Below are positions 11,913-44,802 of a DNA stretch of 64,000 bases, piece by piece. Made by a program: the position numbers and the translations under genes. The notes beneath the pieces were generated by a model. The model was not told where the DNA came from, did not search any database, and worked only from the letters and a program-made list of their open reading frames with translations. Every line of letters starts with the position of its first letter. The first letter of the stretch is position 1. This DNA comes from Patescibacteria group bacterium (GTDB taxonomy: Bacteria > Patescibacteriota > Kazan-3B-28), in contig JBAZNQ010000001.1 in NCBI GenBank assembly GCA_041649135.1, positions 163,037 through 227,036 on the forward strand, given 5' to 3'.

Positions 11913-12150
11913 ACAGACAAAATAATTTACGCTAAATTCGAATTGCCAGCCTAGGGGGAATCACCCTGGGTTGAGTTTGTTCTTGGGGTGGATCGATGAG
12001 TTGTAGTCGTAAACCGACGAGAGACGACAAAAGTGCTGATGCCGGAAAGAGCAAGAAGCCGCCAACCATACGCCGTGTCAGCTGTGGCAAGGGTGGGAAG
12101 TACGCCGCAGGCAGAGGCAAGCGTCGTTAACTACTCGTTCTTCCTCAAGA

Positions 12151-12180
12151 GGGCAGCCCAATGGGCTGCCCTTCTTTTTC
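12151..12180 (+). terminator. rho-independent terminator
   Basis: GGGCAGCCC-aatg-GGCTGCCC followed by TTCTTTTTC. Confidence 0.65.
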
Positions 12181-12308
12181 GCTCTGGGAGACAATTCTAA
12201 TCGATCTACCCTGTTGCCAATTTGTCCACATCTGATAATCTCCTTGTCATAGGAGAAGCCCACCTGTACAATACCATTGTAGTTATAGCACTTAAAAAAG
12301 GAGTCCTC

Positions 12309-12506
12309 ATGGCTTTCAGCTACAAGAACAAAAAAGGTTCAACATATTTCTTGCACTCAAAAGAAGTCACCCTTAAGGGTGGTCGCAAACAACGGATTTA
12401 TTACTTCGGTAAAGAGGTCAAGGCCGGTGCCTGTGACGCCGTCCCAGCTGGTTACAAAGTTAAGGAAAGTGCCCGGACTGGTTTGCCAATTTTGTACAAA
12501 GGATAA
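12309..12506 (+). CDS. small hypothetical protein (66 aa)
   Basis: AAAGGAG RBS 6 nt upstream of ATG 12309; Lys/Gly-rich; imperfect hairpin terminator about 12575-12600. Confidence 0.3.
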   Translation: MAFSYKNKKGSTYFLHSKEVTLKGGRKQRIYYFGKEVKAGACDAVPAGYKVKESARTGLPILYKG

Positions 12507-12684
12507 TTACCCCTTTGTCATGCTGAACTTGCCTGCTCGGCCAGGGTTTCAGCGCCTAACCGTCTATTTTAAAAAACACTCGCTCGTAAGGGCGGGTGTT
12601 TTTATGTACTTGACCAACAAACAAAACAGTAGCTAGAATGAGCCATCTTAGATTTGCACCTGAACAAGATTGGAGGTTAACTCT

Positions 12685-13152
12685 ATGGGCTACAAAGATG
12701 GTGAACCGATCATCGGTTCCAACAATCGGAGTGAATCAACTCCGGCAGGCTGGCACTTTCCCAGCACCGAGTTCACACTCGCAGAACTTAATCCCAAATC
12801 CGTCAGATTCGTTGGCACACCTTCGCCTCATTGCCGTCCCACCCTGCTAGTTCAGCATTTTCACAGTAACGGCGATCAGGCAAGTTGGCGTGTAAGCTAT
12901 CGAGCAGAATGGGCACCCTGTTGTGAAATCTCGATTGTGGTTATTATGACCACCAACGAACTCCGTTGTGCCTTCACAGAGGCAAAGAGTAATTATGGTA
13001 GCGATTGGGTATTTCAGCGATCAGATGATTGTCTATCGATACCCACTCACGATCATGGTGTCAACATTCTGTTAACTGCCGAGATTTGCGAAGCAATCGA
13101 GAAATTCTTAGCGCAAAACGCTAAGTCACCCGCTGTGTCTCAAGGAGAGTAA
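12685..13152 (+). CDS. hypothetical protein (GC-rich)
   Basis: GGAGG RBS 8 nt upstream of ATG 12685; Cys/His-containing 155-aa protein. Confidence 0.35.
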   Translation: MGYKDGEPIIGSNNRSESTPAGWHFPSTEFTLAELNPKSVRFVGTPSPHCRPTLLVQHFHSNGDQASWRVSYRAEWAPCCEISIVVIMTTNELRCAFTEAKSNYGSDWVFQRSDDCLSIPTHDHGVNILLTAEICEAIEKFLAQNAKSPAVSQGE

Positions 13153-13155
13153 CAA

Positions 13156-13779
13156 ATGTCCATCGAAACCATCCTGAACCTAGTCGTCTTATGTGTCATC
13201 GTAGCGATTGGCGCTATTGCAACCATCGCCATCATCGCCCGTATACGACGGCATGGTCAGCAAACGTCCTATAACTCCATGGCAGGCGGTATTGCCACAT
13301 GGCTAGCATCCGATTCCCATTTGCTTGTCCATATGGCAGAGTTTTCGCGAGCCACGTTAACTGACGAGCTGCTCCAGAGCCTTCGTCAGCACGAACCATG
13401 GATCATCAACGCAGTACAGGCTGGCACCACCTATCTCGCCGGTGGCCAATCGTTTTATCTGATTTGTCTCTACGACCAGAACCAGTCCGACATCTGCAAA
13501 ATCGAAGATGGTGATACGCACATTGCATTAAAAGAATGCTTGTGCCGGCTGCTATTCGCCTTTTTCCCTGCTAAATCCGCTGGCCAGAACGAAGACGCTT
13601 GGCTCGATTGGGCACGCACACATTTCGAGCTGTTCTTGATACCTCTTAACGAGGATCTGTCGGTTCGAGACAGCTGCTTCAACTTGAAGCACGCTCGTAA
13701 CTTGCCTGGTTCACTGGAGATCTGGATTGCCGAGGACATGCCGCTGAACAAACCGCTGCACACGCCTAACCCCGAGTAG
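13156..13779 (+). CDS. hypothetical membrane-anchored protein (GC-rich)
   Basis: N-terminal TM helix (LNLVVLCVIVAIGAIATIAIIA); tightly follows the previous ORF. Confidence 0.4.
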   Translation: MSIETILNLVVLCVIVAIGAIATIAIIARIRRHGQQTSYNSMAGGIATWLASDSHLLVHMAEFSRATLTDELLQSLRQHEPWIINAVQAGTTYLAGGQSFYLICLYDQNQSDICKIEDGDTHIALKECLCRLLFAFFPAKSAGQNEDAWLDWARTHFELFLIPLNEDLSVRDSCFNLKHARNLPGSLEIWIAEDMPLNKPLHTPNPE

Positions 13780-13796
13780 GTCTGACCATCTTTCTA

Positions 13797-13823
13797 AAGC
13801 CGCTCCTAACCAGAGCGGCTTTT
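13797..13823 (+). terminator. rho-independent terminator
   Basis: AAGCCGCTC-ctaacca-GAGCGGCTT followed by TT. Confidence 0.6.
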
Positions 13824-14063
13824 CATATGGATTTATAAATACCTAGGGCAAGCCCAATAGTTTTGTCTTGGTAGCCCTAGTGGGACAGAATTGGAACCAA
13901 CTAATGGGGGAGATTAGGGCTTTAATGGATCTCTCAAAAGAGATCAGTTATGCCAGCTAGGAGCGACTACCACATGGGATTAGAACCGGCGACATCCGCT
14001 ATTGTGACAGGTTTGGAGTGGACCTAGAATAATACTATTGATAGTCGTGTATAAAATAAGGGC

Positions 14064-14091
14064 TTGACAAATAATGTACATATGATATATC
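14064..14091 (+). promoter_or_regulatory. sigma70-like promoter for the GHKL operon
   Basis: TTGACA (14064-14069), 16-nt spacer containing TG, TATATC (14086-14091); AT-rich; 35 nt upstream of ORF 14126. Confidence 0.4.
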
Positions 14092-14125
14092 CTGATCAAG
14101 GATATATTAATAACAGATTTAAGGT

Positions 14126-14344
14126 ATGGAGCCGAGTAAGCGAGAAAGGTTTAAAAAACTAGCTGTTTATCGGACAAATGAAGTTCTTAAACGGTTAAAG
14201 GTTCTTGGTAACTGCTCAAACCGCAGTGCTTATGAATATACCGAGGACGAAATAAACAAAATTTTTTCAGAGATCGAACGGAAGGTGAGAGAGACAAAAT
14301 CTAAATTTCACTTCCCCAAAAGTCATGGTGGTTTTAAATTGTGA
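14126..14344 (+). CDS. small basic hypothetical protein, first gene of GHKL operon
   Basis: 72-aa Lys/Arg-rich ORF; 9-nt gap to the next gene. Confidence 0.35.
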   Translation: MEPSKRERFKKLAVYRTNEVLKRLKVLGNCSNRSAYEYTEDEINKIFSEIERKVRETKSKFHFPKSHGGFKL

Positions 14345-14353
14345 GGATTAAAT

Positions 14354-16027
14354 ATGAATCAAATACTTTCGTCTATTCCAATCGTCATTAAAGATCAACA
14401 TACTCTTTTGAATCGCATAGCAGAGGGGTACCAGTCAATTGAGAAAGTGTTGATGGAGTACATCGACAACTCGCTCGATAGTGCTGAAATCATTTTTGAT
14501 GAAGATACTAAACGGTATGGCCGTGATATATCCATAACGGTTGCTATTGATCGCAAGAACAACACTGTCAGCATAAGAGACAACTGTGAGGGCATGGACA
14601 AGATTACAGTTGGTGGTTTGGCTAATAAGGTGAATGAGTCCGGCAAACCTGCACAAGCTCGTGCTTGGGTGACGGGACGGTTTGGATTGGGTATTCATGC
14701 TTTTCGACTAGTGGCGCAAGCATTGGAGGTTACATCGCAATGTAAAGGCGCAGAGCCAACAGCTATCGTTATCGATAAAGACAGGCGAGAAGCAGAACTT
14801 TTTAAGCCGACCGCAGTAGGGCTAACACCGAGCGGAACACTGGTGCAGTTGTGTGGTGTGGAAAAAACTAGACTCAAACATTTAAACCCAGTTGAGTTGG
14901 CGAAAGAAATTGAAATATATTTTGAAGGCTTTTTGTGGCGAAACTTGAAAATTATTGTTGTAGACGGAGACACCTCTTACGCGTGCGAACCCTATGATTA
15001 TGAAAAATTAAAGGGGATCGAAATCAATGAGGTTATTACCACTTGGAATGCTGGCAAAACTCGTATTATTAAGCCAACCGAGAGAGGGATTATAGTTCAT
15101 CTAAAGATTTGTACCGAAGAAGGTAACAATAGAGCCCCTTACTTTGCTTGCAAGGGTAGGAGAATTAGTTATATTCCACAGCTTGATTCATTTATTGCTA
15201 AAACCGAACATCGCAGGAAAGTTTGGGGGCATCACCTATTGACTGGCTATATTGAAGTCCAAGACAATCTTGAGCCAGTTATTACCCGTGATGACTTTGC
15301 GGGAGGGACGGGAAGACAGCAGAACCGAACAGGTATCTATGAGGAGGTTGTTAAGCTGGAAGACAAAATTCATGATGCCATTGAGGCAGTGAACAACAGT
15401 AAGAGCGATGAGAGTTTTCGCAACCTTGCGTCCCGCTTAACAGACATTCTTTCCGATCTAGCGAAAGAGGAGGAGCTTAATTTAAGGTATCAACAGAACG
15501 GTGACAAAAATAAAAAAGGGGAGAAGGAACCCATTACGCCAGATCCGAATGGTTTAGATTACAAGGTTGATAAAAAAATAATTTACGATGGCCCCGGTCC
15601 CATCCATCCCAACCCACATAAGGAAATTATTAATGCCATCAGTGATCCAGATGGCTCCGTAGAGGGAACTAAAATTGAAAAAGAAAAGCAGGGTATAAGA
15701 ATTGAGTTCAGTCAGTTACCTTCCCCTTTGAGAACCCATTATGGTGATAGTGTAATTACCATATTCGTAAAACATAAAGATTTTCAAGATCGGAAGGGTG
15801 ATACACAGCTTGCGGAGCTAGGATCAATGAAGATTACAGCTAGATTGGCAAACTATTTGGCGGCTATAATTTCTAGTGAGTTCAAAGAAGTCTTTTATCA
15901 ACAGAAACACATAGAACCACCACGTGCCGATATTCTGAACCAGCAAATTGACTTTATCTTTAAGATGGAAGATCGCATGAAAGACTTCATCGATAAACCG
16001 TTACAATCTATAGGGATAATCAAATAA
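14354..16027 (+). CDS. GHKL (Bergerat-fold) ATPase, Hsp90/MORC/MutL-like N-terminal domain plus about 350-aa uncharacterised C-terminal region
   Basis: N-box E35-YIDNSLD42, G1 box D76-NCEGM, G2 box G108-RFGLGIHAF in canonical order and spacing; AGGA RBS. Confidence 0.6.
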   Translation: MNQILSSIPIVIKDQHTLLNRIAEGYQSIEKVLMEYIDNSLDSAEIIFDEDTKRYGRDISITVAIDRKNNTVSIRDNCEGMDKITVGGLANKVNESGKPAQARAWVTGRFGLGIHAFRLVAQALEVTSQCKGAEPTAIVIDKDRREAELFKPTAVGLTPSGTLVQLCGVEKTRLKHLNPVELAKEIEIYFEGFLWRNLKIIVVDGDTSYACEPYDYEKLKGIEINEVITTWNAGKTRIIKPTERGIIVHLKICTEEGNNRAPYFACKGRRISYIPQLDSFIAKTEHRRKVWGHHLLTGYIEVQDNLEPVITRDDFAGGTGRQQNRTGIYEEVVKLEDKIHDAIEAVNNSKSDESFRNLASRLTDILSDLAKEEELNLRYQQNGDKNKKGEKEPITPDPNGLDYKVDKKIIYDGPGPIHPNPHKEIINAISDPDGSVEGTKIEKEKQGIRIEFSQLPSPLRTHYGDSVITIFVKHKDFQDRKGDTQLAELGSMKITARLANYLAAIISSEFKEVFYQQKHIEPPRADILNQQIDFIFKMEDRMKDFIDKPLQSIGIIK

Positions 16028-16029
16028 TT

Positions 16030-16947
16030 ATGTCAGTACCAAACGACAATTTACTTGTGGCATTGATTGATGAGTTAGCTCCTGTTAATAATAAATTCCG
16101 AGCAACTCGTGATGCTGTGTCAAAAATCGAGCTAATGTGGGATTTTGGTGGGATCTTAAGCAAATATCTTAAGAAGAACAATCTAAAGCTCCATGAGTTG
16201 CTCTACAAAATTTACGATCCTTATAGCATGGTGAAGATGAGTTACATCACCCGCGACCTCGGAAGCTATGCATATCGCATTCACCAACACTTTAAAAGTC
16301 GATCAGAAATCAGAGATGTTTTAGATGGGCTGATTAGTTACGGAGTTTTTCGTGAAGCTGTCCCATTGCTTTTCAACCCAAAGTACAAATTATCTGATAC
16401 TCGCAAACAAGAAATATTAAAGATGCTGGTTTCCTCCTCTCTCTCTGTTAGCATAGTGGCCTATCGGTTGAAAACACTTAAAAAACAAATAAACCCAATA
16501 TCGAACCCAAGAAACCAAAGGGCAATGGAGTATCAGAGCGAACATGACTACTTGTTGCGCTTGCACAGGGATCTCAACGTCTTTTACGGTCAAAATCCAA
16601 CATACCCGTCAGCTAAACCAACAGAGGAAAAGTTTGGTAGTAAGGCAAGTAGAGAGGCCTTCGTTGCGGTACTGATGGCCTTATCCAGCGAAGCATTTTT
16701 GGGAGGTATAGACAATATCAATCCATCCGCTCTTGATAAAGAGCGGGCGAATCTATTTGAAATTGTGAACAGCAACTCTCAAAAGAGAGCAAGGTTTCGT
16801 AAATGGAGTGTCGGAACCAACGAATTGCTTAAAATCGCAGAGGCCTTACATTCTCTCAACAGTGAATCCGACTATTTGAGTTACGAATCTAAATTAAGAG
16901 GCGGGGCAATTGGGCCGTATAATAATGGACAAAGGCAACTCGGGTAG
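16030..16947 (+). CDS. hypothetical protein (alpha-helical, no motif recognised)
   Basis: 305-aa ORF 2 nt after the GHKL gene; overlaps the next gene by 38 nt. Confidence 0.45.
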   Translation: MSVPNDNLLVALIDELAPVNNKFRATRDAVSKIELMWDFGGILSKYLKKNNLKLHELLYKIYDPYSMVKMSYITRDLGSYAYRIHQHFKSRSEIRDVLDGLISYGVFREAVPLLFNPKYKLSDTRKQEILKMLVSSSLSVSIVAYRLKTLKKQINPISNPRNQRAMEYQSEHDYLLRLHRDLNVFYGQNPTYPSAKPTEEKFGSKASREAFVAVLMALSSEAFLGGIDNINPSALDKERANLFEIVNSNSQKRARFRKWSVGTNELLKIAEALHSLNSESDYLSYESKLRGGAIGPYNNGQRQLG

Positions 16948-17317
16948 AAAATTATTCGATGGCAAAGATAAATACTCGGTCCTCCAGAAATTAGAGGAAG
17001 CGTTTATACTAGGTGCTACCGATGGAGAAGCTTGTCTGTATGCAGATATTTCAACCTCTGCCCTATATGCTTACCAGAAGCGAAATCCCGCATTTCTGGA
17101 GCGTAAAGAGCTATTAAAACTGAAGCCTGTTCTACGAGCTCGACGAACAGTCGTAAAGGCACTCGAGACCAATCCAGATTTAGCACTCAAGTATTTAGAA
17201 AGAAAAATGCGGATAGAATTCAGCACGGGTCAACGGGTTCAGATCGGTTTGGACAAACATGTCTTAAGTGATGAGGATAAGGACCATCTGGATATCATTC
17301 TACAGTCCAACTCCTAG
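16910..17317 (+). CDS. HTH protein resembling phage terminase small subunit (gpP-like HTH) N-terminus
   Basis: pattern G-R-K..DKYS..LQKLEEAFILGATDGEACLYADIS.SALYAYQKRNPAF matches terminase-small/HTH_23-like domains. Confidence 0.4.
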   Translation: MGRIIMDKGNSGRKLFDGKDKYSVLQKLEEAFILGATDGEACLYADISTSALYAYQKRNPAFLERKELLKLKPVLRARRTVVKALETNPDLALKYLERKMRIEFSTGQRVQIGLDKHVLSDEDKDHLDIILQSNS

Positions 17318-19146
17318 GACAGCCCATCTTCTTCAGTAGACGAGTCTGGTTGAGTCTCATCTGGATTTTTTAAATTCAAACCAAAGTCCGTATGAAGGTC
17401 ATAACCCACCCGAAACATGTATCGTTCGACGGCCTTTCTGTCTCCATCGGCGTGAAGGTATATTTCGAGCCCTTCCGAATAAACGTCGCTGGCAGAGGCC
17501 ATACCGACGAGTTCTTTGTGTATCCAGTCATCCAAGCGATCATTCAAGAACCCAGCTGTGGTAAATTTATCAGAATGCCCCGCAGCTGTAGCACCCAACT
17601 TAAACAGCATCTTTAATGCTTCCGCAGCCATATCTTTAAAAGATGATGCCACAATGCTCTTTATCGCATTACGAAGGTTTGTGGCAGCAAGATCAGCACC
17701 GCTACGATTACCTACCTTGATGGCTGCAACACCAAACGAATAAAAAATGTAATAAAGCTGGAATACTACATCGGGGAAGTTTGTTATATGCTTGCTTTCT
17801 TCTGGCGTCAGCATCATCAAACGCCTGAAAACAACATCTACTGCATCAAAGTAGATTAGGGGGTACCAGTCTGGATGATTCTGATCATAAATAGCACTAA
17901 TACTAAATAGGGCGGCAAAAAGATTTTGGGTTTGATTTTTGTATTCCCAGTCGTCGGGCATTAGAGGCTCCTCGTGGTAAGACTGTCCAATAAAGAGTTT
18001 CTCGCCGAGCCAACCAATACACACAAACATTTCATCTAACCCATTATCCTTTTCGTTGTGTTGATCCATAATCCGCTCTGCTGTCTTTTCAAAAAGGTTT
18101 ATTACCCTTTTAACGACTACCGGGTGTGAAGTTACCCGAGTTTCGGCGATACGTTTCCAAAAATTAGTTAATACCTTTAGTGAGTCCGTGTTTCCAGAAT
18201 CAACCAACATCTCCGCAATGGACTGGGTGGTGTCCAATATAGATAAAATAACCGAGCCAAGGCCTTGATGTTGTATAACCTCTGCATGAGCATTGAACAT
18301 ATCAATTAAGTGTTCTAGGTAATGAGACAGCAGCCCTCGGTTAGCGTCCCAATTAGGCCATCCCTCGATCTTTTTGCGCACTTTTATAAACCGATCACTA
18401 ATGGCAGTAACTGATTCGAGAAAACGATTATAGGTGACTAGGTCAAGACGCACCAAAGCATCAATAGCAATCTGATTGGCCGACGCAAACGGATCAGTGG
18501 CTTTTTGGGAAATTTTGGTCAAATATGAATACCTTTTCATCTGGCGATCAAAGACCATTGATTGTTCAAGCTCCTCTTCTTGCGCTTTTAACTGTGTTGT
18601 TTCAGTATCCAATACTTCTTCCTGAACCTTGCCCGATTGGTCAAATTGTGCGAGTACAACGCTCATACGCCACATGCGGTTATCCTTGGGGCTAACAATC
18701 CCATATTTTTTATGTAAGAAGCTTTCGATTGCATTCGTAGTTGCCCTCTTGAGACTATCCAAAAGAAACTGACTTGGTTGCAGATATCGAAAATTTCGCA
18801 AAACTGCTCCAAGAAACAATGCAACCGTCCCTCCCAACCCTATCCAAATTAGCACTAGCATCCAACCAGCGCTTACGAGTTCCTGTGTGTGAAAATAGTA
18901 CTGGGGAACAAAATCATATTGCCCCAATGTTAACGAGAGACCGGCAAAAGCAGTCCACCCTAGCAAAACCACACTCAACAGCATAAATATTATGAGAACG
19001 GTGTCTTTCAGTATCAATTGCACTTCTCGATCAGAAAATCTACTGTAAATAATTTGGATGAAAACAAAAAATACAGCGACACAAATCCCGAGTACCGCTA
19101 CTTCGATGCCGAGCAAGCTATTGTAGTAATTTTGTAATCCGGTCAT
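17314..19146 (-). CDS. large membrane protein: four N-terminal TM helices plus roughly 480-aa cytoplasmic domain of unknown function
   Basis: 610-aa ORF convergent with the GHKL operon (4-nt overlap); hydrophobic helices in the first about 115 aa; no catalytic motif recognised. Confidence 0.5.
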   Translation of the reverse strand: MTGLQNYYNSLLGIEVAVLGICVAVFFVFIQIIYSRFSDREVQLILKDTVLIIFMLLSVVLLGWTAFAGLSLTLGQYDFVPQYYFHTQELVSAGWMLVLIWIGLGGTVALFLGAVLRNFRYLQPSQFLLDSLKRATTNAIESFLHKKYGIVSPKDNRMWRMSVVLAQFDQSGKVQEEVLDTETTQLKAQEEELEQSMVFDRQMKRYSYLTKISQKATDPFASANQIAIDALVRLDLVTYNRFLESVTAISDRFIKVRKKIEGWPNWDANRGLLSHYLEHLIDMFNAHAEVIQHQGLGSVILSILDTTQSIAEMLVDSGNTDSLKVLTNFWKRIAETRVTSHPVVVKRVINLFEKTAERIMDQHNEKDNGLDEMFVCIGWLGEKLFIGQSYHEEPLMPDDWEYKNQTQNLFAALFSISAIYDQNHPDWYPLIYFDAVDVVFRRLMMLTPEESKHITNFPDVVFQLYYIFYSFGVAAIKVGNRSGADLAATNLRNAIKSIVASSFKDMAAEALKMLFKLGATAAGHSDKFTTAGFLNDRLDDWIHKELVGMASASDVYSEGLEIYLHADGDRKAVERYMFRVGYDLHTDFGLNLKNPDETQPDSSTEEDGLS

Positions 19147-19536
19147 TGGTTATGGAGTTATTTACGCAAAGAGCGGGTTGCCCCCGCTACATCTATTTTA
19201 CCACCAGTTGACCTAGTCGACCCCTAATAATGGCCGGTATCAATAGTGCCCTCTTGGCAAGGAATACCTCTGTGCTAATATGGAGGCGTTCACCCACAAC
19301 TTAATAAAACCGAAGAACTTTTCTATATGAAGAGATTCGTCATGGATAAAGGCGGGCAGATGCTCGGCGTCCATGACGATCTACTCTTCGGAGCAAGAGG
19401 TTGTGGGTGAACCGCTAGAGGTCTGCCCACTTTTGATATGAATTTATATCTACCCCCTCGCCCCAATCTTCCTTATAACAAAAACCGCAACAAGGCCACT
19501 TTAAAGTTCCCCTTTACACGTGAGGAGCTGACAAAG

Positions 19537-19773
19537 ATGGCCAAAAAGGAGAGTTTCTTTGAAGAGAAAAGACTAGGAGAGTTTATGCGGTTTGGAGAAA
19601 TGTTTCTTTTGGGTAATCTCTGGGCGATGATGTGGGTTGGTGGGTTCGGCGTCAACGGCATTTCGATAGGCGTAATCGTGGGAGGTTGGTTAATTGGAGG
19701 AATGGCAGCCATATCTTGGGGTCGCAAAATAGATCGACTTAAAAAGGGTGACTGGAAATCTTTATGGCCCTAG
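19537..19773 (+). CDS. small membrane protein (two TM helices)
   Basis: GAGGAG RBS 9 nt upstream of ATG 19537; Gly/Trp-rich helices. Confidence 0.3.
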   Translation: MAKKESFFEEKRLGEFMRFGEMFLLGNLWAMMWVGGFGVNGISIGVIVGGWLIGGMAAISWGRKIDRLKKGDWKSLWP

Positions 19774-19903
19774 AATAGTTATCCATATTGACGCCTATTG
19801 AAATATTGATAGACTGAATGTACAAGTAGCTGGCCTTTGGGCCATTCGACATATCGCTGACGGCACAGTTAGTTTTTAGAAAAATGACGGCAATTATTTT
19901 GTA

Positions 19904-20152
19904 ATGCCGTCATTTATGCGTACCCAAACCCGTGGTTTGCTCACAAACCAGTCTAACCTGTCTGATGAAGAAGCCCTAAATCGTTGGAATGCAACGGGGA
20001 GACTGACCATTGAACAATGTCGGAAGATCGACCCCAGATTAATGAAATTGTCAGACAAAGATATATTAGTTATTTTGCATGACCTGTACGGGTTAGGGCA
20101 GCTAGCCTTTGATCAATGGTCCGAACAAAGACAGTTCCAAAAATCCCATTAG
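19904..20152 (+). CDS. small hypothetical protein upstream of the recombinase (possible directionality/regulatory factor)
   Basis: 82-aa ORF; its start codon lies inside an 11-bp perfect palindrome (19882-19915). Confidence 0.3.
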   Translation: MPSFMRTQTRGLLTNQSNLSDEEALNRWNATGRLTIEQCRKIDPRLMKLSDKDILVILHDLYGLGQLAFDQWSEQRQFQKSH

Positions 20153-20192
20153 GGTTATTGAAGGACTTCTAAAAGTGGAATACGTTTAGACT

Positions 20193-21722
20193 ATGCGTAC
20201 TTCAGACACAACAGAGCAGGAGAACAAAAGGGGCATTATTTACTGCCGCGTATCATCAAAAGACCAACTAGAGGGAACCAGCCTAGAAACACAAGAGCGA
20301 TTCTCTACCGAATACGCAATTAATCATGGTATCAAGGTTATTAAGGTTTTTGTCGAACGAGGGGAAAGCGCAAAAACAGCCAATAGAACGGAGTTTAATA
20401 AAGCATTAGCTTTTTGTACTGATAAGAAAAATAAGATTCAGTATTTCATTGTTTATAAACTAGATCGATTTGCTCGCAATCAAGATGATCATGTCACTGT
20501 AAAAGCGATACTACGCCGTGCGGAGGTAGAATTGAGATCCGTCACGGAACCGATTGACCAAACTCCAATTGGCCGTGCCATGGAGGGAGTGCTATCTGTA
20601 TTCGCTGAATTTGATAACAATGTTAGAACCGAGCGTACTAAACAAGGTATGCTAGAGCGCGTCCAAGAGGGAATGTGGGTATGGCCGACTCCATTGGGTT
20701 ATTGCAGACCATTCAAGGGCTCTAATATTACACCAGAACCAGAAGTATCTCCTTTAATTCGATTGGGGTTTGAAGAGTATTCAAAGGGAATCTACACCTA
20801 CAAAAGCTTGGCCAAATTTTTGTCTGACCGAGGGTTGAGAACCAGAGGCGGATATCTGCCCTCTCATCAATTCATAGATAAAATGATAAAAAATCCAATT
20901 TACAAAGGATTTATAGAAGCATGGGGTGGACACAAGGGATCGTTCGAAGCAATCGTGTCAGAGGAGCTATTTGATTCGTGCCAAGTAAGCCGTAAGGGTT
21001 TATCACACAAAGCCCCTAGGATGTCCAGAAACCCCCTATTCCCTTTGCGAGGAGTTATATGTAAGGAGTGTTCCAGTCCGATCACTGGTAGCAAATCCAC
21101 GGGCAATAGTGGCAAGAAATATCCCTATTATCATCACCCACATCAGCATTGCTCTCTGGCACAATCAGTCCCAAAAGAGAACTTTGAACAACTATTCGTC
21201 GAGTTTTTGAACAACATTACCCCAGACCACCAATATGAGAAGTTATTCAAAGCAGTGGTGTTGGACATTTGGCAAAACAATTACAAAAGGTTTGACGAGG
21301 ACAATGCCAGAGTTCGAAGAGAAATCGCAAAGTTGGAACAAGAACGTCAAAAGGTTTTTGATCTTCACAGAACAGGGATATATACAGACAGCGAGTTTGA
21401 TGAGCAGAGAAACTTCATTAATCGAATGATAGATGAAAAACGTCTTCTGGTTCACGAAAAGGCAGTAGAAGAATTTGATATGGAAGAGGCTCTAAACTAT
21501 TGCTTCAACTTTATCAAACAAACCTCTAAAACATGGCTTGAAGCTGATTTCCCTCACAAATTACAGTTTCAGAAATTGATATTTAAGGGGAATATCGAAT
21601 TTGATGGAAAAAAGTTTGGAACCACCAAATTGTCAGCTCTGTATGCTCTAAATCGAGAATATTCTGGTGAAAAATCCCATTTGGTAGCGCCACGGGGAAT
21701 CGAACCCCGGTTACAAGAATGA
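20193..21722 (+). CDS. large serine recombinase (resolvase/invertase catalytic domain + recombinase domain + zinc ribbon)
   Basis: catalytic-serine context IIYCRVSSKDQ; resolvase core (YKLDRFARN); Cys/His cluster (CKECSSP...HHPHQHC); C-terminal 41 nt overlap the tRNA-Glu gene antisense. Confidence 0.8.
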   Translation: MRTSDTTEQENKRGIIYCRVSSKDQLEGTSLETQERFSTEYAINHGIKVIKVFVERGESAKTANRTEFNKALAFCTDKKNKIQYFIVYKLDRFARNQDDHVTVKAILRRAEVELRSVTEPIDQTPIGRAMEGVLSVFAEFDNNVRTERTKQGMLERVQEGMWVWPTPLGYCRPFKGSNITPEPEVSPLIRLGFEEYSKGIYTYKSLAKFLSDRGLRTRGGYLPSHQFIDKMIKNPIYKGFIEAWGGHKGSFEAIVSEELFDSCQVSRKGLSHKAPRMSRNPLFPLRGVICKECSSPITGSKSTGNSGKKYPYYHHPHQHCSLAQSVPKENFEQLFVEFLNNITPDHQYEKLFKAVVLDIWQNNYKRFDEDNARVRREIAKLEQERQKVFDLHRTGIYTDSEFDEQRNFINRMIDEKRLLVHEKAVEEFDMEEALNYCFNFIKQTSKTWLEADFPHKLQFQKLIFKGNIEFDGKKFGTTKLSALYALNREYSGEKSHLVAPRGIEPRLQE

Positions 21723-21756
21723 GAATCTTGCGTCCTAACCGTTAGACGATGGCGCC
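21682..21756 (-). tRNA. tRNA-Glu (anticodon CUC)
   Basis: reverse complement GGCGCCATCGTCTAACGGTTAGGACGCAAGATTCTCATTCTTGTAACCGGGGTTCGATTCCCCGTGGCGCTACCA folds as a cloverleaf (D arm GTCT/GGAC, anticodon stem CAAGA/TCTTG with loop TTCTCAT, T arm CGGGG-TTCGATT-CCCCG, encoded CCA); close to the E. coli tRNA-Glu pattern. Confidence 0.8.
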
Positions 21757-21831
21757 CTAACAACTTAATTATAGCAGTATCAGCCCGCCATCTTTGATAC
21801 ACTAAAATCGTATACCTGTCTAATCTTTACT

Positions 21832-24042: not shown

Positions 24043-25476
24043 ATGGCTAACACTAGAATTTTCATCTCCGACACCCCCAACCACATTGGCGAGACCATTA
24101 CTGTTTATGGCTGGATCCACAGCAAACGGGTAATGGGCCAGACCGTGTTTATCGATCTCCGCGACAGCTCTGGTTTAGTCCAAGTCGTGTTTGGTGAGGA
24201 GATGAGATCATCCATCGAAACAGTCAAGCCAGAATCGGTGGTTATGATTACTGGTGAAGTTGTCGAACGGGGAGGCAAAAATATCAACGAAAAAATTACT
24301 ACCGGCAAAATTGAAATTCAAGGCAAGGGTATTGAGGTAAAAAACGAATCTTTAACTCCGCCATTTGAAATTAGTCAGGAAAATGTAATAGACGAAGAAA
24401 CCCGTCTAAAATATCGCTATCTCGATCTCCGCCACGAACGCATGCACCAAAATCTCATCATGCGTCACAAAATTATTGCCTTTATCCGCGGATTTTTGGA
24501 TAACCGCCAATTTGTCGAAGTGGAAACACCGTTACTATCTGCTCCCACCCCCGAAGGCGCTCGCGACTTTTTGGTACCCAGTCGTAAATATAAGGGTTCA
24601 TTTTATGCATTGCCGCAAGCTCCTCAACAATATAAACAACTGCTGATGGTAGCTGGGTTGGAGAGATATTATCAAATTGCCAGATGTTTTCGCGATGAAG
24701 ATTCCCGCGGTGACCGTCAGCCAGAGTTTACCCAACTCGATTTAGAAATGTCATTTGTTGATCGTGAAGATGTCATCAAACTAAATGAAGAACTACTAAT
24801 TGATTTAGTTACTACTCTCTATCCCAACAAAAAAATCCAAACCACGCCTTTCCCCAAGCTAACTTATGCGGAAGTTATGGAAAAATATGGCACCGACCGT
24901 CCTGACTTGCGGAAAGACAAGAATGACCCCGACCTGTTAGCATTTTGCTGGATTACTGATTTCCCATTCTTTGAGCGTGTCGAGAGCGACCGTCCCGATT
25001 CTGCTGAACAGCAGAACGAGGGGAAAACCAAGTGGACGTTCACCCACAATCCATTCTCTGCACCGCTTGAAACATCAACCAAAGATCTATTGGATGGTAA
25101 AAATATCGACAAGATTATTTCTGCTCAATATGACATTGCGCTAAATGGTTTTGAAATCGGCGGCGGTAGTATCCGTAACCATAAACCCGACGCTCTGTTA
25201 GCCGCTCTAAAGATCATGGGGTATGACACAAAAAAAGCGGAAGCCGATTTTGGCCATCTGCTTGAAGCTTTTCGATATGGCGCTCCACCCCATGGCGGTA
25301 TCGCTTGGGGACTTGACCGACTGGTAATGATCCTTCAAAACGAACCCAATATCCGTGAAGTGATCGCTTTCCCCAAGACTGACAAAGGCCGCGACCCAAT
25401 GATGGATTCCCCGCGAGAAGTTGATACCGCCACTCTCAACGAATTAGGCTTAACGCTTAAGAGAACGAAAAGTTAA
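24043..25476 (+). CDS. aspS: aspartyl-tRNA synthetase, short archaeal/non-discriminating type (no GAD insertion)
   Basis: OB-fold anticodon-binding N-terminus; class II motifs (FRDEDSRGDRQPEFTQLD, GGGSIR, GLDRLVM); 477 aa; contains an in-frame palindromic insert at 24994-25023. Confidence 0.9.
   Translation: MANTRIFISDTPNHIGETITVYGWIHSKRVMGQTVFIDLRDSSGLVQVVFGEEMRSSIETVKPESVVMITGEVVERGGKNINEKITTGKIEIQGKGIEVKNESLTPPFEISQENVIDEETRLKYRYLDLRHERMHQNLIMRHKIIAFIRGFLDNRQFVEVETPLLSAPTPEGARDFLVPSRKYKGSFYALPQAPQQYKQLLMVAGLERYYQIARCFRDEDSRGDRQPEFTQLDLEMSFVDREDVIKLNEELLIDLVTTLYPNKKIQTTPFPKLTYAEVMEKYGTDRPDLRKDKNDPDLLAFCWITDFPFFERVESDRPDSAEQQNEGKTKWTFTHNPFSAPLETSTKDLLDGKNIDKIISAQYDIALNGFEIGGGSIRNHKPDALLAALKIMGYDTKKAEADFGHLLEAFRYGAPPHGGIAWGLDRLVMILQNEPNIREVIAFPKTDKGRDPMMDSPREVDTATLNELGLTLKRTKS
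24994..25023. repeat. palindromic mini-insert CGATTCTGCTG-N-CAGCAGAACGAGGG, copy in aspS
   Basis: cccgattctgctgaacagcagaacgagggg encodes RPDSAEQQNEG in frame. Confidence 0.75.
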
Positions 25477-30890: not shown

Positions 30891-31185
30891 GCTAAAAAAG
30901 CAAAAGGAAGGAACTATGCCCTTCCCTTTGCCGTAATTCTCCTAGCTTGTCCGGTATCAGCCAAAGCCTTTTACCCAAGCCCTTATGTGAAATTTAATTT
31001 CCAAGGGTGGGGATGCCGGTTGGAATAAGCAGGGAGAAGTTTGCTCGCAACCTCGTACTATCAGATCCCGAGGTGCCGAGGGAAAGCTGATTTTGTGACC
31101 AAACTTCTACCGGCTTGTGATTGGCTTTTTCATAATTGCCAATTATTTCATTATAACACATAAAAACAATTTAGTCAAGACTTAA

Positions 31186-35466: not shown

Positions 35467-35689
35467 GGGACTACGGCGCAAACGGAAAGATAGAGGTTCT
35501 GTCAAAAACGGAGCCTCTTTTTATTAATTCTGTTTATTCCCTTAATAGTTTTTATCAATCTCAAATAAAGAACAAAACAATTTGAAATAAAATCCTACAC
35601 CTCCTCTGGAGATAGACAACGTCGCACATTGTATCTTGTACGACATTACATCAAGGATAAGGAGAACACCCCTTCCTTCGTCATTCCGA

Positions 35690-36317
35690 GTGAAACGAAG
35701 AATCCAGCAAAGCGTTTATCAATTTCTTTTTATCTTGACCTTGAATCCGACTTCGAATTTTCCAATTCGTTTTTGCAGATGGACTGACTACTATCGCCCA
35801 AGGCTCAATTGCCACCTCCCCGACCTCTGATACTCGTAAAGCTAAATACAGGTCTTCTGGGGCCAATGAAAAGGCCTACTAGCCAACCTTTGTCATTGCG
35901 AGAAGTTTTACGACGAAGCAATCTACTCCCGTCATCCTGAATTAATTTCAGGATCTTTAAAATCGGAACATAAATCGGCTTCAACCAGAAGAAATCTAAA
36001 CTCATCAACCAGGAGGCTAGCCCACCAGTCAACCAGACTCCCCCACCGACCGCTGAAACGACGCTCCTTGACTTTTTAGATTCGTCGTCCTGAGCGTAGT
36101 CGAAGGATCTATCATCAAATCTGGAAATCAGCTTTTGGAGCCAGTTTTTAGATGCGACCGAATCCCCGTCAATGCATGCAACGATTTCTCCCCGCACTTC
36201 CTTAAAGCCTCTAATTCTGGCATAAACAATTCCGCTCGGCCCATTCTCCTCAACAACTCTCCAATTTGTCCCGTCCTTCGCGTGCCCCGTTGTCATTCCT
36301 GCGAAGGCAGGAATCCA
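35690..36317. repeat. cluster of 5 GTCAT-headed palindromic mini-elements (about 25-32 nt each)
   Basis: 35690-35715 GTCATTCCGAGTGAAACGAAGAATCC; 35892-35923 GTCATTGCGAGAAGTTTTACGACGAAGCAATC; 35931-35955 GTCATCCTGAATTAATTTCAGGATC; 36084-36109 GTCGTCCTGAGCGTAGTCGAAGGATC; 36293-36317 GTCATTCCTGCGAAGGCAGGAATCC. Confidence 0.75.
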
Positions 36318-36503
36318 TTTTTGCTCCTTATCATCATCCTGACTTGACCAGAATCTTTTCGCGATCTCCACCGTCTTATCACTACAATTATGCGCCACCA
36401 AAATAACCTCATCCGGCATCAAAGTCTGCTGTTGAATTGATTTCAAACACCGCGCAATATTACCCGCTTCATTGTGGGCAACAATTAATACCGATATCTT
36501 CAT
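35805..36503 (-). CDS. glycosyltransferase family 2, N-terminal domain intact, interrupted in frame by palindromic mini-elements (possible pseudogene)
   Basis: MKISVLIVAHNEAGNIARCLKS...DEVILVAHNCSDKT...ACIDGDS typical of GT2; segments IPAFAGMTTGHAK, RSFDYAQDDE and LIQDDG are encoded by the GTCAT palindromes; C-terminal third is low-complexity. Confidence 0.5.
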   Translation of the reverse strand: MKISVLIVAHNEAGNIARCLKSIQQQTLMPDEVILVAHNCSDKTVEIAKRFWSSQDDDKEQKWIPAFAGMTTGHAKDGTNWRVVEENGPSGIVYARIRGFKEVRGEIVACIDGDSVASKNWLQKLISRFDDRSFDYAQDDESKKSRSVVSAVGGGVWLTGGLASWLMSLDFFWLKPIYVPILKILKLIQDDGSRLLRRKTSRNDKGWLVGLFIGPRRPVFSFTSIRGRGGGN

Positions 36504-36566
36504 GTGATGTCCCTATAATTGGAGATTGGACATTGGCGAATTGGACATTAAAACCGCCTCGCGGTT

Positions 36567-37094
36567 TTAATGTCCCTCCGGTTGGATTACGGCATTTTCA
36601 ACCGCCGCCCAATGTGAATCTTCATTACTTTCTGGAACTAGAATCGTTATCTGATCTCCCGGCGTTAGTTTAAAGTAAGTCACCGAGGCCAACAGAACAG
36701 CATAGGATTTGCCGCCAGCGACTACTTTATATTCATCATCTTCATAAACCAGCGTGCCCAAAAGTTTTTTACGGTCAACTGGTCCAATTTGTTTAAAGAT
36801 AAACGAGCCATCGTCTTGGATCGTCAGCTTTAACACATCCCCTACCACCAATTTAGATTTGCTGGCGTAGTTAGCTGGTACGGGATACTTCTTGCCGTCG
36901 TGGTCCAACATATACTGACCGTCGAACACACCTTCAACCACGTTGCCCTCGGACTTCAAATTAACAGCTCTACCACCCACATCATCAAATTGGACTCCTA
37001 TCAGTTCTGTTAAAACCTGTTTGGCTGATGCCAAATTAGCGGTCGCTGTTTCCAACAACTGCTTTACCATCTCGATTTTTGCTTTGTCTGCCAT
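36567..37094 (-). CDS. hypothetical protein, last gene of the VirB4-like ATPase operon
   Basis: 175-aa ORF. Confidence 0.4.
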   Translation of the reverse strand: MADKAKIEMVKQLLETATANLASAKQVLTELIGVQFDDVGGRAVNLKSEGNVVEGVFDGQYMLDHDGKKYPVPANYASKSKLVVGDVLKLTIQDDGSFIFKQIGPVDRKKLLGTLVYEDDEYKVVAGGKSYAVLLASVTYFKLTPGDQITILVPESNEDSHWAAVENAVIQPEGH

Positions 37095-37214: not shown

Positions 37215-37253
37215 ATTGGTTTAGATTGGTGAGATTGAATAGATTGATTAGAC
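37215..37253. repeat. 9-mer tandem repeat GATTGGTNA family, copy a
   Basis: attggttta gattggtga gattgaata gattgatta. Confidence 0.7.
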
Positions 37254-39641
37254 TCCCCCTAATCCCGTATCTTTGGTGTACTTAATCCTTTCTCCAACTT
37301 GCATCTCTACTAGTCGTTTATCTTTCCCAAATTTTAAGCGCGCCAACTGACGGATCGCTTCCGCAATCTTTGGGTTACCTTCACCCATTGGCGGCAAAGC
37401 CTGCAAAGTAAATGGCCGACTCAACATCCCGTCAATCATCAATTTGACGTAGGCATTTCTATTTTCAATGTTGATCAAATCATTTTGACTAACATCTGGC
37501 TCAAATTGTTTCCCGATCGCTTCCGCATCCGGCGCACCGATCGTAAACGCTACCAATGAACCCACATTGCCAAATACCGCATCCCGGATCTTTTCTTCCA
37601 ACTGGGCAACAAATTGGTGCGCAATCGTCAAATTTAGTTTGTATTTCCGCGCCTCCGACAAAATCGTCGCGATCGAATCCGTGGTTACATTCTGGAACTC
37701 ATCAATATATAAATAGAAATCCTGACGTGCGCTCTCCGGCATATCCGCACGGCTAAGCGCCGCCATCTGCATCTTTGAGACCAGAATAAAGCCCAATAGG
37801 TTGCTGTTAATATCGCCAGTCAAACCCTTAGCCAGATTGACTAACAAAATCTTTTTGTTGTCCATCACATCACGGATATCAAACGAACTCTTAGCCTGAC
37901 CAACAATATTTCGCATCATTTCGTTACTAATAAACCGGCCGATTTTACTGATGATGTAGGAGAACAACTCCCCTACCTGATTACTTTTTTCGGCTTGGAC
38001 GAATTCCTCTTTCCAGAATCGCTGTACTGTCGGATCTGTTACCGAAGTCAATTTCGCCTCTCGAAACGCTTTGTCAGTAAACACCCTCGGGATATCAATT
38101 AGGGTCGCTCCTCCCCTTTCGTCTGCCAATAATAACAACATGGCATTGCGCATATAATGTTCAAAAATCGGGCCAACGATCCCAGAACTATTTGGATCAA
38201 ATAATTTATAAAAGATCGAGATCATCTCCGACACCACCATATCTTTTTCGGCTGGCGTCTTTGCTTCCAACAAGTTCAAGCCCAATGGTCGGTCAATGTC
38301 CGGCGGATAGAAATGAATCACATCATCAACTCGTAGTTTGGGTATTCTCTGTAATAACCACTCGATCATGTCGCCGTGAGGATCAATTACGCACACTCCC
38401 TCGCCATTATTAATATCCTGCAGAGCCAAATTTTGCATCCAAGTAGATTTGCCGGTACCAGTTTTACCAATCACGTAAATGTGCCGGCGTCTATCATCCC
38501 GGGAAATCCGCACTTGTTTTTCCATACCGCGAAAAACATTTTTCCCCAGCAGTATTCCTTCTTTGGGAAGATTTTCCGGTGCTACCAATCGTTTAGCTTT
38601 CAACCATCGCACATTCGGAGTTTCGGTCTTAGCCGTTGGCAAATGAAATATGGTCGCCAACTCTTCCGTATTCAAAATATCTGCATCTCTGGAATTACCA
38701 AATTGACGTAGAACATAATTACTCAATACTTCACCCTCTGGAATTTTTGCTGGCACCAAAGCATTGAGTTCCGGCGCATTAAATTGCAAGAAACTATCTA
38801 TCAATGTTTTTAAATGACTCCTCGCCTGAAGATCATCCGCCGCGGCCGCTACCAATCGAATTACCACCTCAAAACCAGTCTTTGATGCTTTAGTCTCCAC
38901 CGCCCGAATTACATCTTCCTGACCAGACGTAATTGGCTTGGGCGCAGATTTATTTTCTTCTGGTTGGGTAGTTGTTACTAATCCCCCCAATCCTTTTAAC
39001 ACTCCTTCGCCAATACTTCCGCCGCCACCTTTGCCCTGTTGCAGATTCTTAGCCGCCTGATGAGCTTGTTTCGCCCAACGATTGTCTGCTACTGGTCGAA
39101 ACGCCACTTGGATCGCCGCTCCTGCACCACTATCGGCCAATTTGCTCAAAGCATTAGTCAATGCCCCCAATCCATCCACCGCCAACGTTTGATAAGTTCG
39201 CAACGGAAAATAAGTTGGCTTCTTTAGCTGCAACTGAATACTGGCTACCCGTCCCTCTTTTACAAAAAAATTCGGATACGGTGCTTTTTCTACAATTGCG
39301 TCCGAATACTGTGAAGTGATTTGCTTTTCCACAAAATCTACCAATTCACTTGGTACATTCATATAAAAAGTAATCAACTCTTGTTCAGTTGCTATCTCAA
39401 AAGTCAGATGCCGCTCCCCTACCACATCTCGAATTCCTCCCAGATTACTAAAAATTGCCTCCATTGGAGCAATCATCGACTTCAAATCGGCCTGCGGATC
39501 ATCTTTTGGCCGCGGCACTGCAATCATCAAATTAGTTCGAGTCCGAATGTTGTCTTGGCTCACCCGCCCACTTTTTCTAAATAAAAACACTCCCCCAACC
39601 GAGATTAAAGCCAAGGTTAAAATTAAGTAAAACCAAAGCAT
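37248..39641 (-). CDS. membrane-anchored VirB4/TraC/HerA-like (AAA_10) ATPase
   Basis: N-terminal TM helix; Walker A IGKTGTGKST; Walker B LYIDEFQN; downstream EARKYKLNLTIAHQ motif; paralog of 47650-50526. Confidence 0.7.
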   Translation of the reverse strand: MLWFYLILTLALISVGGVFLFRKSGRVSQDNIRTRTNLMIAVPRPKDDPQADLKSMIAPMEAIFSNLGGIRDVVGERHLTFEIATEQELITFYMNVPSELVDFVEKQITSQYSDAIVEKAPYPNFFVKEGRVASIQLQLKKPTYFPLRTYQTLAVDGLGALTNALSKLADSGAGAAIQVAFRPVADNRWAKQAHQAAKNLQQGKGGGGSIGEGVLKGLGGLVTTTQPEENKSAPKPITSGQEDVIRAVETKASKTGFEVVIRLVAAAADDLQARSHLKTLIDSFLQFNAPELNALVPAKIPEGEVLSNYVLRQFGNSRDADILNTEELATIFHLPTAKTETPNVRWLKAKRLVAPENLPKEGILLGKNVFRGMEKQVRISRDDRRRHIYVIGKTGTGKSTWMQNLALQDINNGEGVCVIDPHGDMIEWLLQRIPKLRVDDVIHFYPPDIDRPLGLNLLEAKTPAEKDMVVSEMISIFYKLFDPNSSGIVGPIFEHYMRNAMLLLLADERGGATLIDIPRVFTDKAFREAKLTSVTDPTVQRFWKEEFVQAEKSNQVGELFSYIISKIGRFISNEMMRNIVGQAKSSFDIRDVMDNKKILLVNLAKGLTGDINSNLLGFILVSKMQMAALSRADMPESARQDFYLYIDEFQNVTTDSIATILSEARKYKLNLTIAHQFVAQLEEKIRDAVFGNVGSLVAFTIGAPDAEAIGKQFEPDVSQNDLINIENRNAYVKLMIDGMLSRPFTLQALPPMGEGNPKIAEAIRQLARLKFGKDKRLVEMQVGERIKYTKDTGLGGV

Positions 39642-43316: not shown

Positions 43317-43331
43317 TGTTCCTACTCGTCC

Positions 43332-43374
43332 GATTGATTAGATTGGTTAGATTGGATAAATTGGTTAGATTATC
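43332..43374. repeat. 9-mer tandem repeat GATTGGTNA family, copy c
   Basis: gattgatta gattggtta gattggata aattggtta gattatc between gatA and gatC. Confidence 0.7.
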
Positions 43375-43699: not shown

Positions 43700-43886
43700 A
43701 AAATTCCTACCTTAACCCCCAATCCAACAGGGCTATTATAGCGTAAAAAAATACCCCCGTAACCTAACAGTCACGGGGGCCCAGCCGAGATTAGTAGTGA
43801 ACGCCCACCATAGAGGTAACATCTTCTTCCTCTGGTATATTTACCGCTGCCTTCCTGTAACCAGTTGTCATGAATCTACCCACGAG

Positions 43887-44120: not shown

Positions 44121-44254
44121 AGGTGCACCTCCCCAAAATCATTGATGGCTCCACCATAGCACCCCCAACACTAAGTTGACAAATAGCCCACTCAAATTTA
44201 CGCTGGGAGCGACACCGTAAGGTGCACCTTATTACAAACCGTGGGAGGAAAAGA

Positions 44255-44653: not shown

Positions 44654-44802
44654 ACCATGCTGGAACCGCCCAATCAAGAATCCCCTACCTCCCAAAACCG
44701 GCTCTCCCAAGAGCCGGTTTTCATTTATACCTAAATCGAAGACCCGCAACTATACGCGGGTCTTATTCCTGCTTGGTACATACGAGATCTGGCCCTTAGC
44801 CC

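Follow-up and report, generated by a model that had tools for sequence, protein, structure and literature searches.

A small palindromic repeat in frame in aspS and gatC of a Kazan-group Patescibacteria genome, probably of REP type

We analysed a window of 64,000 nt, the whole stretch from position 163,037 to 227,036 (forward strand) of contig JBAZNQ010000001.1 (assembly GCA_041649135.1), from a Patescibacteria group bacterium (GTDB lineage Bacteria; Patescibacteriota; Kazan-3B-28) of the candidate phyla radiation (CPR). The window holds two nearly identical copies of a short palindromic segment, one within aspS and one within gatC, which lies on the other strand, and each is translated as part of its host protein. 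We consider it probable that this segment is a small dispersed repeat of the repetitive extragenic palindrome (REP) type, recently spread and tolerated in frame. The host genes and the two copies are as follows.

24043-25476, plus strand: aspS, host gene, encoding a short CPR-type aspartyl-tRNA synthetase (AspRS) of 477 aa without the GAD insertion domain (NCBIfam)
24992-25022, minus strand: REP-type unit of 31 nt in aspS, composed of a CCTC tag, GTTCTGCTG, TT, CAGCAGAAT and a CGG tail plus GAC; core at 24999-25016; encodes RPDSAEQQNEG
43370-43699, minus strand: gatC, host gene, 109 aa, upstream of gatA and gatB (NCBIfam)
43504-43534, minus strand: the gatC copy of the unit, which agrees with that in aspS at 30/31 positions; core at 43511-43528; encodes PSFCCPAESG

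Both copies have the form GTCCCGATTCTGCTG[A/G]ACAGCAGAACGAGGG. The aspS copy (24992-25022) reads GTCCCGATTCTGCTGAACAGCAGAACGAGGG and the gatC copy (43504-43534) reads GTCCCGATTCTGCTGGACAGCAGAACGAGGG; the best block shared by the two is 31 nt long, and its sole difference is the A/G at the centre of the palindrome. A first-pass annotation of this DNA had reported the pair as 28 of 30 identical between 24994-25023 and 43506-43535, which is correct within those limits. The peptides it gave, RPDSAEQQNEG in the plus-strand open reading frame (ORF) 24043-25476 and GNPSFCCPAESGQ in the minus-strand ORF 43370-43699, are also correct, and NCBIfam assigns both ORFs to the genes it had named. Written as a pattern, the unit is CCTCGTTCTGCTGNNCAGCAGAATCGG; the 29-nt pattern CCCGATTCTGCTGRACAGCAGAACGAGGG has two matches in the window and none in any of the dinucleotide-preserving shuffles (100/100 without a match). 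The core of both copies is a perfect 8+8 palindrome of 18 nt, TTCTGCTG-NN-CAGCAGAA. Folded as single strands of DNA, the segments reach -7.4 to -9.4 kcal/mol (z -2.5 to -4.3), and the predicted fold opens the last pair around the 2-nt centre (AA or GA) into a 4-nt loop. Six-frame translation finds stop codons in 0/6 frames of the GA-centred form and a single one, in an unused frame, in the AA-centred form.

The aspS copy encodes residues 317-327 of AspRS. At this place, between FFE and KWTFTH, where the window has RVESDRPDSAEQQNEGKT, 22/22 aligned AspRS orthologues (63-75% identity) have a 13-column gap, and the T. thermophilus enzyme has a gap of 12 residues. The nearest AspRS is 73% identical, the named relatives are filed as 'candidate division Kazan', and several sources contain the insert-bearing protein. 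An AlphaFold2 model (mean predicted local distance difference test score, pLDDT, of 72) has the insert as coil between strands 310-313 and 330-333, with residues 316-326 below a pLDDT of 50 and free of secondary structure; as modelled, this is the picture of an exposed loop. For aspS, the low-confidence coil of the model agrees with the idea that the inserts might map to surface loops. At this site the aligned orthologues have neither a palindrome nor a loop; the aspS copy, at least, requires that about 33-39 nt were truly inserted where no homologous DNA existed.

The segment is likewise absent from the aligned GatC orthologues. The suggestion that it is an insertion and not a conserved motif is therefore borne out in both genes, as AspRS and GatC orthologues without the segment leave no amino-acid conservation that would speak against it. 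The gatC of a sibling sample (ERZ27247358, P0122; locus L002) is 99% identical to that of the window, with 3 single-nucleotide polymorphisms over 318 nt, the indel not counted. At the site itself L002 reads CCCTCG-ACCGGT-TCGGGAC and the window CCCTCG-TTCTGCTGTCCAGCAGAA-TCGGGAC: the flanks are common and the centre is 6 nt in L002 versus 18 nt in the window, both multiples of three. Neither allele derives from the other by simple deletion, and either could be the ancestral one. The 30-nt in-frame insert that had been proposed for gatC is thus in frame and missing from orthologues as claimed, but against L002 it is a swap of the centre, not a clean insertion. Upstream of gatC the two strains differ structurally, since the alignment of L002 to the window ends just there (L002 1-587 unaligned). 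The 1.4 kb between gatC and ligA (43700-45075) contains overlapping ORFs on both strands, among them a 143-aa ORF without a Pfam match, and has no Rfam match. In another CPR genome, whose gatC is 65% identical, the same loop carries a different perfect 16-nt palindrome, TCCGCCAGCTGGCGGA (L003 3150-3175), encoding NPPAGG. That all GatC loop extensions are translated palindromes is true for L003 but false for L122 and L124, and this generalisation was dropped.

A strict scan of Joint Genome Institute (JGI) metagenomes returned one further copy of the unit, CCCGATTCTGCTGGACAGCAGAACGAGGG, in frame in trmD of Ga0315284_10000148 (locus L121). Its 29 nt are identical and encode APRSAVQQNRG at a place where solved TrmD structures have a 13-residue gap, and the insert is retained in 98%-identical variants. 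The gene order S16-KH-trmD-uvrB is common to L121 and the window genome, with TrmD 73% and UvrB 81% identical. The same 29 nt thus stand at different loci of two genomes whose proteins are 19-27% diverged, by a fifth to a quarter. The recent spread proposed in the first-pass annotation agrees with the 30/31 identity in unlinked genes, with the differing L002 gatC allele and with the identical 29 nt in the L121 trmD. The window genome's own trmD has, in the same loop, a different hairpin, GAG ATT CCG AAA CAA GTT CGG AAT GAC, which is a REP of the CGTC type discussed below.

The known copies of the unit are therefore three (aspS, gatC and L121 trmD). All are intragenic singlets, on either coding strand and in different frames, and each 29-31-nt unit adds 10-13 residues at a loop without counterpart in orthologues. 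On the minus strand all three read CCTC / GTTCTGCT / GTYC / AGCAGAAT / CGG, that is, a tag, stem, loop, stem and tail of 4-8-4-8-3 nt. We also considered as a tag the plus-strand CGTC upstream of the aspS copy (24991-24994), which is absent in L121 and replaced by TGTC in gatC; the minus-strand reading is preferred because a CCTC tag abutting the stem suits 3/3 copies better. At Rfam gathering thresholds the unit matches no family, a tRNA being the sole match in the window and L121. A search of protein databases with the six-frame translations of the unit gave nothing at E <= 10, such matches being too short, and the core has no match in the viral contigs searched.

The layout of the unit recalls the CGTC-tagged REPs of Di Nocera et al. 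2013 (PMC3733652). According to that article, these are repeats of about 27 nt with an unpaired CGTC, TGTC or CCTC tag, a stem of 8-9 bp with A/T pairs at its first and second positions, a loop of 4-5 nt and a 3-nt tail that is mostly CCA. They are described as mainly head-to-head dimers, also as singlets, with no associated transposase gene, and as regularly nested in small target palindromes. Many intragenic copies lie in the replication/repair genes uvrA, uvrB and uvrC and in tRNA synthetase and tRNA modification genes; single ones encode roughly 7-10 residues, and the highest counts are given for Opitutus terrae and R. conorii (PMC3733652). Our unit resembles this description in having CCTC, a listed variant of the tag, directly 5' of the stem in 3/3 copies on the minus strand, in its intragenic in-frame copies of about 10 residues, in nesting within palindromes and in the lack of a visible associated transposase.

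Canonical members of this class occur in the same genome, of which 83 kb were covered, namely the window and about 10 kb on each side of it (L125 and L126; ENA contig ERZ27247363:k141_2225525, 420 kb). Perfect hairpins of the form ATTC-N4-5-loop-N4-5-GAAT with GAC(G) after them number five in these 83 kb, against 0.48 in shuffles. Starting from the tag, the five have CGTC or TGTC, a stem of 8-9 bp opening with A-T and T-A, a loop of 3-5 nt and the second arm, with a CCA tail in two; they thus show the published stem feature in full, and the ATTCTGG REP forms an inverted doublet. Two of the five are intragenic, one in the genome's own trmD and the other in a glycosyltransferase gene (36291-36317). 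The latter lies within a window-specific glycosyltransferase insertion of 19 aa and encodes WIPAFAGMT, a peptide of the same kind as WIPAFTGMT and WMPAFAGMT, which the supplementary table of PMC3733652 lists as CGTC-1 REP peptides of Rickettsia conorii and Sphingomonas wittichii. A head-to-head REP doublet of about 85 nt is almost identical in two non-orthologous places, L125 5247-5330 and L121 2425-2500 (GTCATTCTGGTAA[apex]CCAGAATCGTAG...ATAAGATTCTGGCCAAGCCAGAATGAC); the apex of its first hairpin is TTCTGCCGTACGGCAGAA in L125, a compensatory variant of the 18-nt core, versus GCGAAGCGCAT in L121. The canonical REPs and the other relatives of the unit in the window are as follows.

36291-36317, plus strand: canonical CGTC-type REP, TGTC-ATTCCTGC-GAAG-GCAGGAAT-CCA, in frame and antisense in the glycosyltransferase ORF 35805-36503
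59609-59636, minus strand: canonical CGTC-type REP, CGTC-ATTCCCGA-CCTGA-TCGGGAAT-CCA, upstream of topA in a region without a called gene
53102-53146, minus strand: window-specific insertion of 15 aa in uvrC, LASEKQVAPRQARGG, holding GGTAGCCCCTCG-GCAAGC-TCGGGGT and a local duplication of GGCAAGCTCGG
31067-31082, no strand assigned: CCCGA-GGTGC-CGAGGG, intergenic, upstream of mfd, with the same outer motif and a short centre; uncertain
61942-61959, no strand assigned: degenerate core-like TTCCGCTGAAGAGCAGAA, intergenic, with the direct repeat CGTAG on both sides, adjoining CCCTGAT heptamer repeats

The insertion in uvrC has the outer flanks of the L121 trmD copy, but its centre is 6 nt long and lacks the 18-nt core. 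A 'short clamp' pattern, CCCGA-N5-6-CGAGGG, has 4 matches in the window versus 0.44 expected. We had considered these matches as a family, but the one in rnc belongs to the native protein (FPEKPEG); a match to the pattern is therefore no reliable sign on its own. The uvrC match and the L002 gatC allele are, judged from their sequences, convincing as putative short-centre forms, because they have extended flanks in common. In uvrC (52634-54682) and in the gene of a DUF87/TraG-like ATPase (47650-50526), comparison with two syntenic relatives reveals several more window-specific in-frame insertions of 4-16 aa, for example RVTGDESRVASGEQEL at 47755-47802 and GATSHKPL at 54383-54406.

A degenerate third copy had been placed at 61941-61964 in the first-pass annotation. 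The resemblance to the core is real, with 2 mismatches among the 16 specified positions of the 18-nt core at 61942-61959; the flanks are unlike those of the unit (more than 7/27 mismatches to the 29-nt unit), both substitutions disrupt pairing and the folding is no better than that of shuffles (z -0.66). By our own arithmetic, about 0.02 matches with at most 2 mismatches to the core are expected in 64 kb, so this sequence is probably a decayed relative of the core and not a copy of the 31-nt unit. The window also has intergenic tandem arrays of the heptamers CCCTGAT, TCTCTAC, TCTCTTC and TTCACTA (61900-61925, 62879-63031 and 63507-63657), which are unusual for a small genome and recall those of heterocystous cyanobacteria.

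The 18-nt core is found well outside the three unit copies. A scan for TTCTGCTGNNCAGCAGAACG over one genome per species gave at least 117 loci, where by our own arithmetic about 17 would be expected by chance in the whole collection. Among the matches listed, most are in metagenome-assembled genomes (MAGs) of Opitutae/Verrucomicrobiota, with many copies each, and two Kazan-group CPR MAGs are included. In the Opitutales among these matches, the core, with a centre that is mostly GC and flanks CA...CG, forms the centre of REP doublets GTAGGT...ACCTAC, and the same doublets also occur with CGTTG in place of the core. In another MAG it is the interior of an element resembling a miniature inverted-repeat transposable element (MITE), which is also found with a different interior of about 50 nt. 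The tetranucleotide before the stem is most commonly CCTC among the matches listed, yet in only 18/139 copies. In the Kazan MAG RBG_13_50_9 (L033 1944-3041) an ORF that resembles a reverse transcriptase (YADD motif) has the core in frame, as part of a long insertion and inside a larger palindrome with 13-nt inverted repeats (GCGAAGAATCTAG/CTAGATCCTTCGC). In RIFCSPHIGHO2_01_FULL_44_14, also a Kazan MAG, the core forms a hairpin 9 nt past a stop codon. A recurrent arrangement is thus an 18-nt palindrome centred in another palindrome, where it replaces 5-7 nt, and CPR copies have a direct repeat CGA...CGA around the core.

These contexts raise the question of whether the 18-nt palindrome (A)TTCTGCTG-NN-CAGCAGAA(CG) might be an independent apex cassette that moves between unrelated hairpin centres and between phyla, which we regard as unlikely. 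The contexts number at least four in CPR bacteria (the CCCTCG...TCGGG unit, the apex of the CGTC-REP doublet as a compensatory variant, the palindrome in the reverse-transcriptase ORF and the hairpin after a gene); in Opitutae the palindrome occupies the centre of REP doublets and MITE-like elements of several kinds. With thousands of repeat families in existence, two may have the same 8-nt stem by chance; that CPR and Opitutae also share the A...CG flanks would count mildly against such a coincidence. If the shared sequence reflected transfer and not coincidence, it might point to DNA passing between Opitutae hosts and an episymbiont lineage of the CPR, and the palindrome would also rank among the smallest mobile units known.

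REPs of another type, the GTAG REPs and REPINs, are mobilised by RAYT, a transposase of the HUH/Y1 family (Bertels and Rainey 2011, PMC3116915). Like our unit they are short hairpin repeats, which occur as singlets and inverted doublets and are thought to move as single-stranded hairpins (PMC3116915), and the identical 18-nt core stands at the centre of the GTAGGT...ACCTAC doublets of Opitutae MAGs. Unlike them, the aspS and gatC copies have no GTAG next to the stem (the trmD copy of L121 and the short form in uvrC are the only places where GGTAGCCCCTCG is seen), no RAYT gene is seen in the 83 kb, the unit is intragenic and not extragenic in the window as well as in L121, and there are 2 copies in 83 kb versus tens to hundreds.

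Two further systems are similar by description. The Rickettsia palindromic elements RPE-1, which Ogata et al. reportedly described in 2000, are said to be about 100-150 bp long and to encode 30-50 residues. As with our unit, they are palindromic repeats in frame in many unrelated and often essential genes of a reduced genome, at tolerant surface positions; our unit is much shorter, with 27-31 nt and about 10 residues. The small dispersed repeats (SDR) of heterocystous cyanobacteria, attributed to Elhai et al. in 2008 (Genome Res 18:1484), are said to be hairpins of 21-27 nt that are nested in HIP1 palindromes, lie beside heptamer tandem repeats and are mostly intergenic. The window shares with them the short hairpin repeats and the heptamer arrays, one of which adjoins the degenerate core; the phylum and the intragenic placement differ. 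We also considered a MITE: the terminal inverted repeats with target duplication and the length of 50-500 bp that characterise this class are not found in a unit of 27-31 nt, and CGA...CGA is lacking in most other core copies.

The combination of these observations makes it probable, in our judgement, that the segment is a dispersed REP-type repeat. Copying would take place at the DNA level through machinery that acts in trans, most likely with a single-stranded hairpin as the form that is copied, and the unit would tend to enter an existing small palindrome or replace its centre. Selection would then spare only those insertions that leave the frame intact and fall where a surface loop of an essential protein tolerates them. 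In a gene-dense CPR genome, where many landing places are coding and only tolerated copies survive, this would explain why the unit is seen in frame in aspS, gatC and trmD. The failure to find a transposase here agrees with the lack of a dedicated transposase for CGTC REPs in the published description (PMC3733652).

Several points weigh against this reading. With regard to the published CGTC REPs (PMC3733652), the CCC of the tag region (CCCTC) of our unit can pair with the GGG of the tail, whereas published tags are unpaired; in its stem, GTTCTGCT(G)/(C)AGCAGAAT, the first pair is G.T and the second T-A, with 8 Watson-Crick pairs in the core; and its loop is 2-4 nt and not 4-5 nt. In the gatC alleles, the doublet apices and the Opitutales doublets alike, the difference is not a clean insertion; 5-7 nt are replaced each time, which simple transposition does not predict. 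No consistent target-site duplication is found, direct repeats being no commoner than chance around some 130-135 core copies among the matches listed. The 83 kb, outside which most of the genome lies, contain no transposase candidate. No gene family recurs beside the core in the 117 loci listed, where all-against-all clustering of 2151 ORFs gave generic families only. Finally, the unit has only 2 copies in the 83 kb and 1 more in the strict-pattern JGI scan, and a high copy number is therefore not demonstrated. The tail (CGG in 3/3 copies, in place of the consensus CCA that two canonical window REPs have) and the stem sequence GTTCTGCT/AGCAGAAT also differ from the published REPs, for which Patescibacteria are not named as a host phylum in the accessible parts of the article. 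Given the same layout and a CCTC tag on one side and four departures on the other, the unit is best filed, from its sequence, as a putative REP-type repeat close to the CGTC superfamily and not cleanly inside it.

The main alternative, which would account for the centre replacements and the perfect stems, is an enzyme-free spread between hairpins. While DNA is replicated or repaired, template switching or short-patch gene conversion would use a few bases of flank homology to overwrite the apex of one palindrome with that of another. All three comparable pairs (the gatC alleles, the L125/L121 doublet apex and the Opitutales doublets) differ by replacement of the centre within common flanks. The stems are all perfectly Watson-Crick paired, with 4/7 pairs changed on both sides and none on one side only, a count biased by the choice of sequences for perfect stems. 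The loop of the L003 gatC holds its own perfect 16-nt palindrome, and in gatA a perfect 22-nt palindrome, TTTTCGACACCTGTGTCGAAAA (42374-42395), looks like a local inverted duplication and not a dispersed element: native FST provides the first arm and the second replaces native GADEK, which is clear local palindromisation in the same genome. Nonetheless, we hold such a spread to be unlikely as the explanation of the unit. It explains the aspS copy poorly, as the orthologues offer no prior palindrome there; the flank homology is just 6-7 nt; and 29 nt identical across genomes with proteins 19-27% diverged are easier to obtain by a sequence-specific agent or a recent transfer. A local quasi-palindrome or template-switch origin unique to each locus was rejected, with the same 29-31 nt standing at three unlinked loci; that description suits the gatA palindrome instead.

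It is also conceivable that the palindrome is a functional cis-element, either the site of a dimeric protein or a regulatory RNA hairpin, selected independently in the host genes. A perfect 8+8 palindrome with a 2-nt centre does resemble a site of crossover or of binding by a dimer, there is a gene for a serine recombinase 2.3 kb upstream of aspS, and REPs have been proposed as RNA elements downstream of genes (PMC3733652). Yet the segment sits in the middle of three unrelated essential coding sequences, on either strand and in different frames. It is absent in orthologues, is polymorphic between near-identical strains and has no Rfam match at gathering thresholds, and independent selection would not yield 29-31 identical bases including the flanks, so that we give this explanation very little credit. 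The more specific candidate of a crossover site for the serine recombinase (20193-21722) was rejected, as nothing beyond the shape of the site, with its 2-nt centre, supports it. That the segment arose in sequencing or assembly, for instance as a fold-back chimera, is more improbable still: library artefacts can make palindromes and the window comes from a metagenome assembly, but the same 29-31 nt are found at three loci in two genomes from different projects, the insert-bearing proteins have been recorded by several sources and have 98%-identical variants that keep the insert, and the reading frame is kept every time.

From a broader perspective, the in-frame insertion of REPs is a documented phenomenon, described for Rickettsia and Opitutus and for tRNA synthetase and uvr genes (PMC3733652). 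What is new here is the host phylum, the repeat family, the strain-level swap of the centre, the re-use of loops by different palindromes and the core common with Opitutae. REP-type repeats and the "decoration" of essential proteins would thereby extend to the CPR, whose genomes are tiny and gene-dense and so offer few non-coding landing places for a repeat. The gatC strain polymorphism, as well as the gatC and trmD loops that hold different palindromes in related genomes, provide material on how CGTC-type REPs move. Such inserts are strain markers; they break metagenome contigs and give rise to unexplained indels in the marker-protein alignments used for CPR phylogeny.

Other repeats and features of the window were also observed. 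A 9-nt tandem repeat, TTGGTTAGA, and its variants occur at 42324-42362, 37217-37263 and 43316-43380, both in intergenic regions and in frame in gatA, where the repeat adds 13 residues that two syntenic relatives do not have. A 37-nt repeat (GGCCACGGCTTTG..TACTTTC[G/C]CCAAGA[C/G]GAAAGTA) has two copies, one between a sigma-like gene and uvrC (52032-52070) and the other where no gene is called (59512-59551); the pairing in its hairpin is kept by a two-sided change. The region from about 12000 to 21760 may be an integrated element: the large serine recombinase gene (20193-21722) abuts a tRNA-Glu gene (21682-21756, minus strand), and the region also holds a HATPase_c_3 protein (14354-16027) and several ORFs without a Pfam match. 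Finally, at about 35500-36600 the gene strand switches from plus to minus and the GC skew goes from about -0.05 to about -0.23, a value that lasts to the end of the window. This region, which includes a palindrome with a 15-bp stem at 36543-36575, is possibly a replication terminus or origin region.

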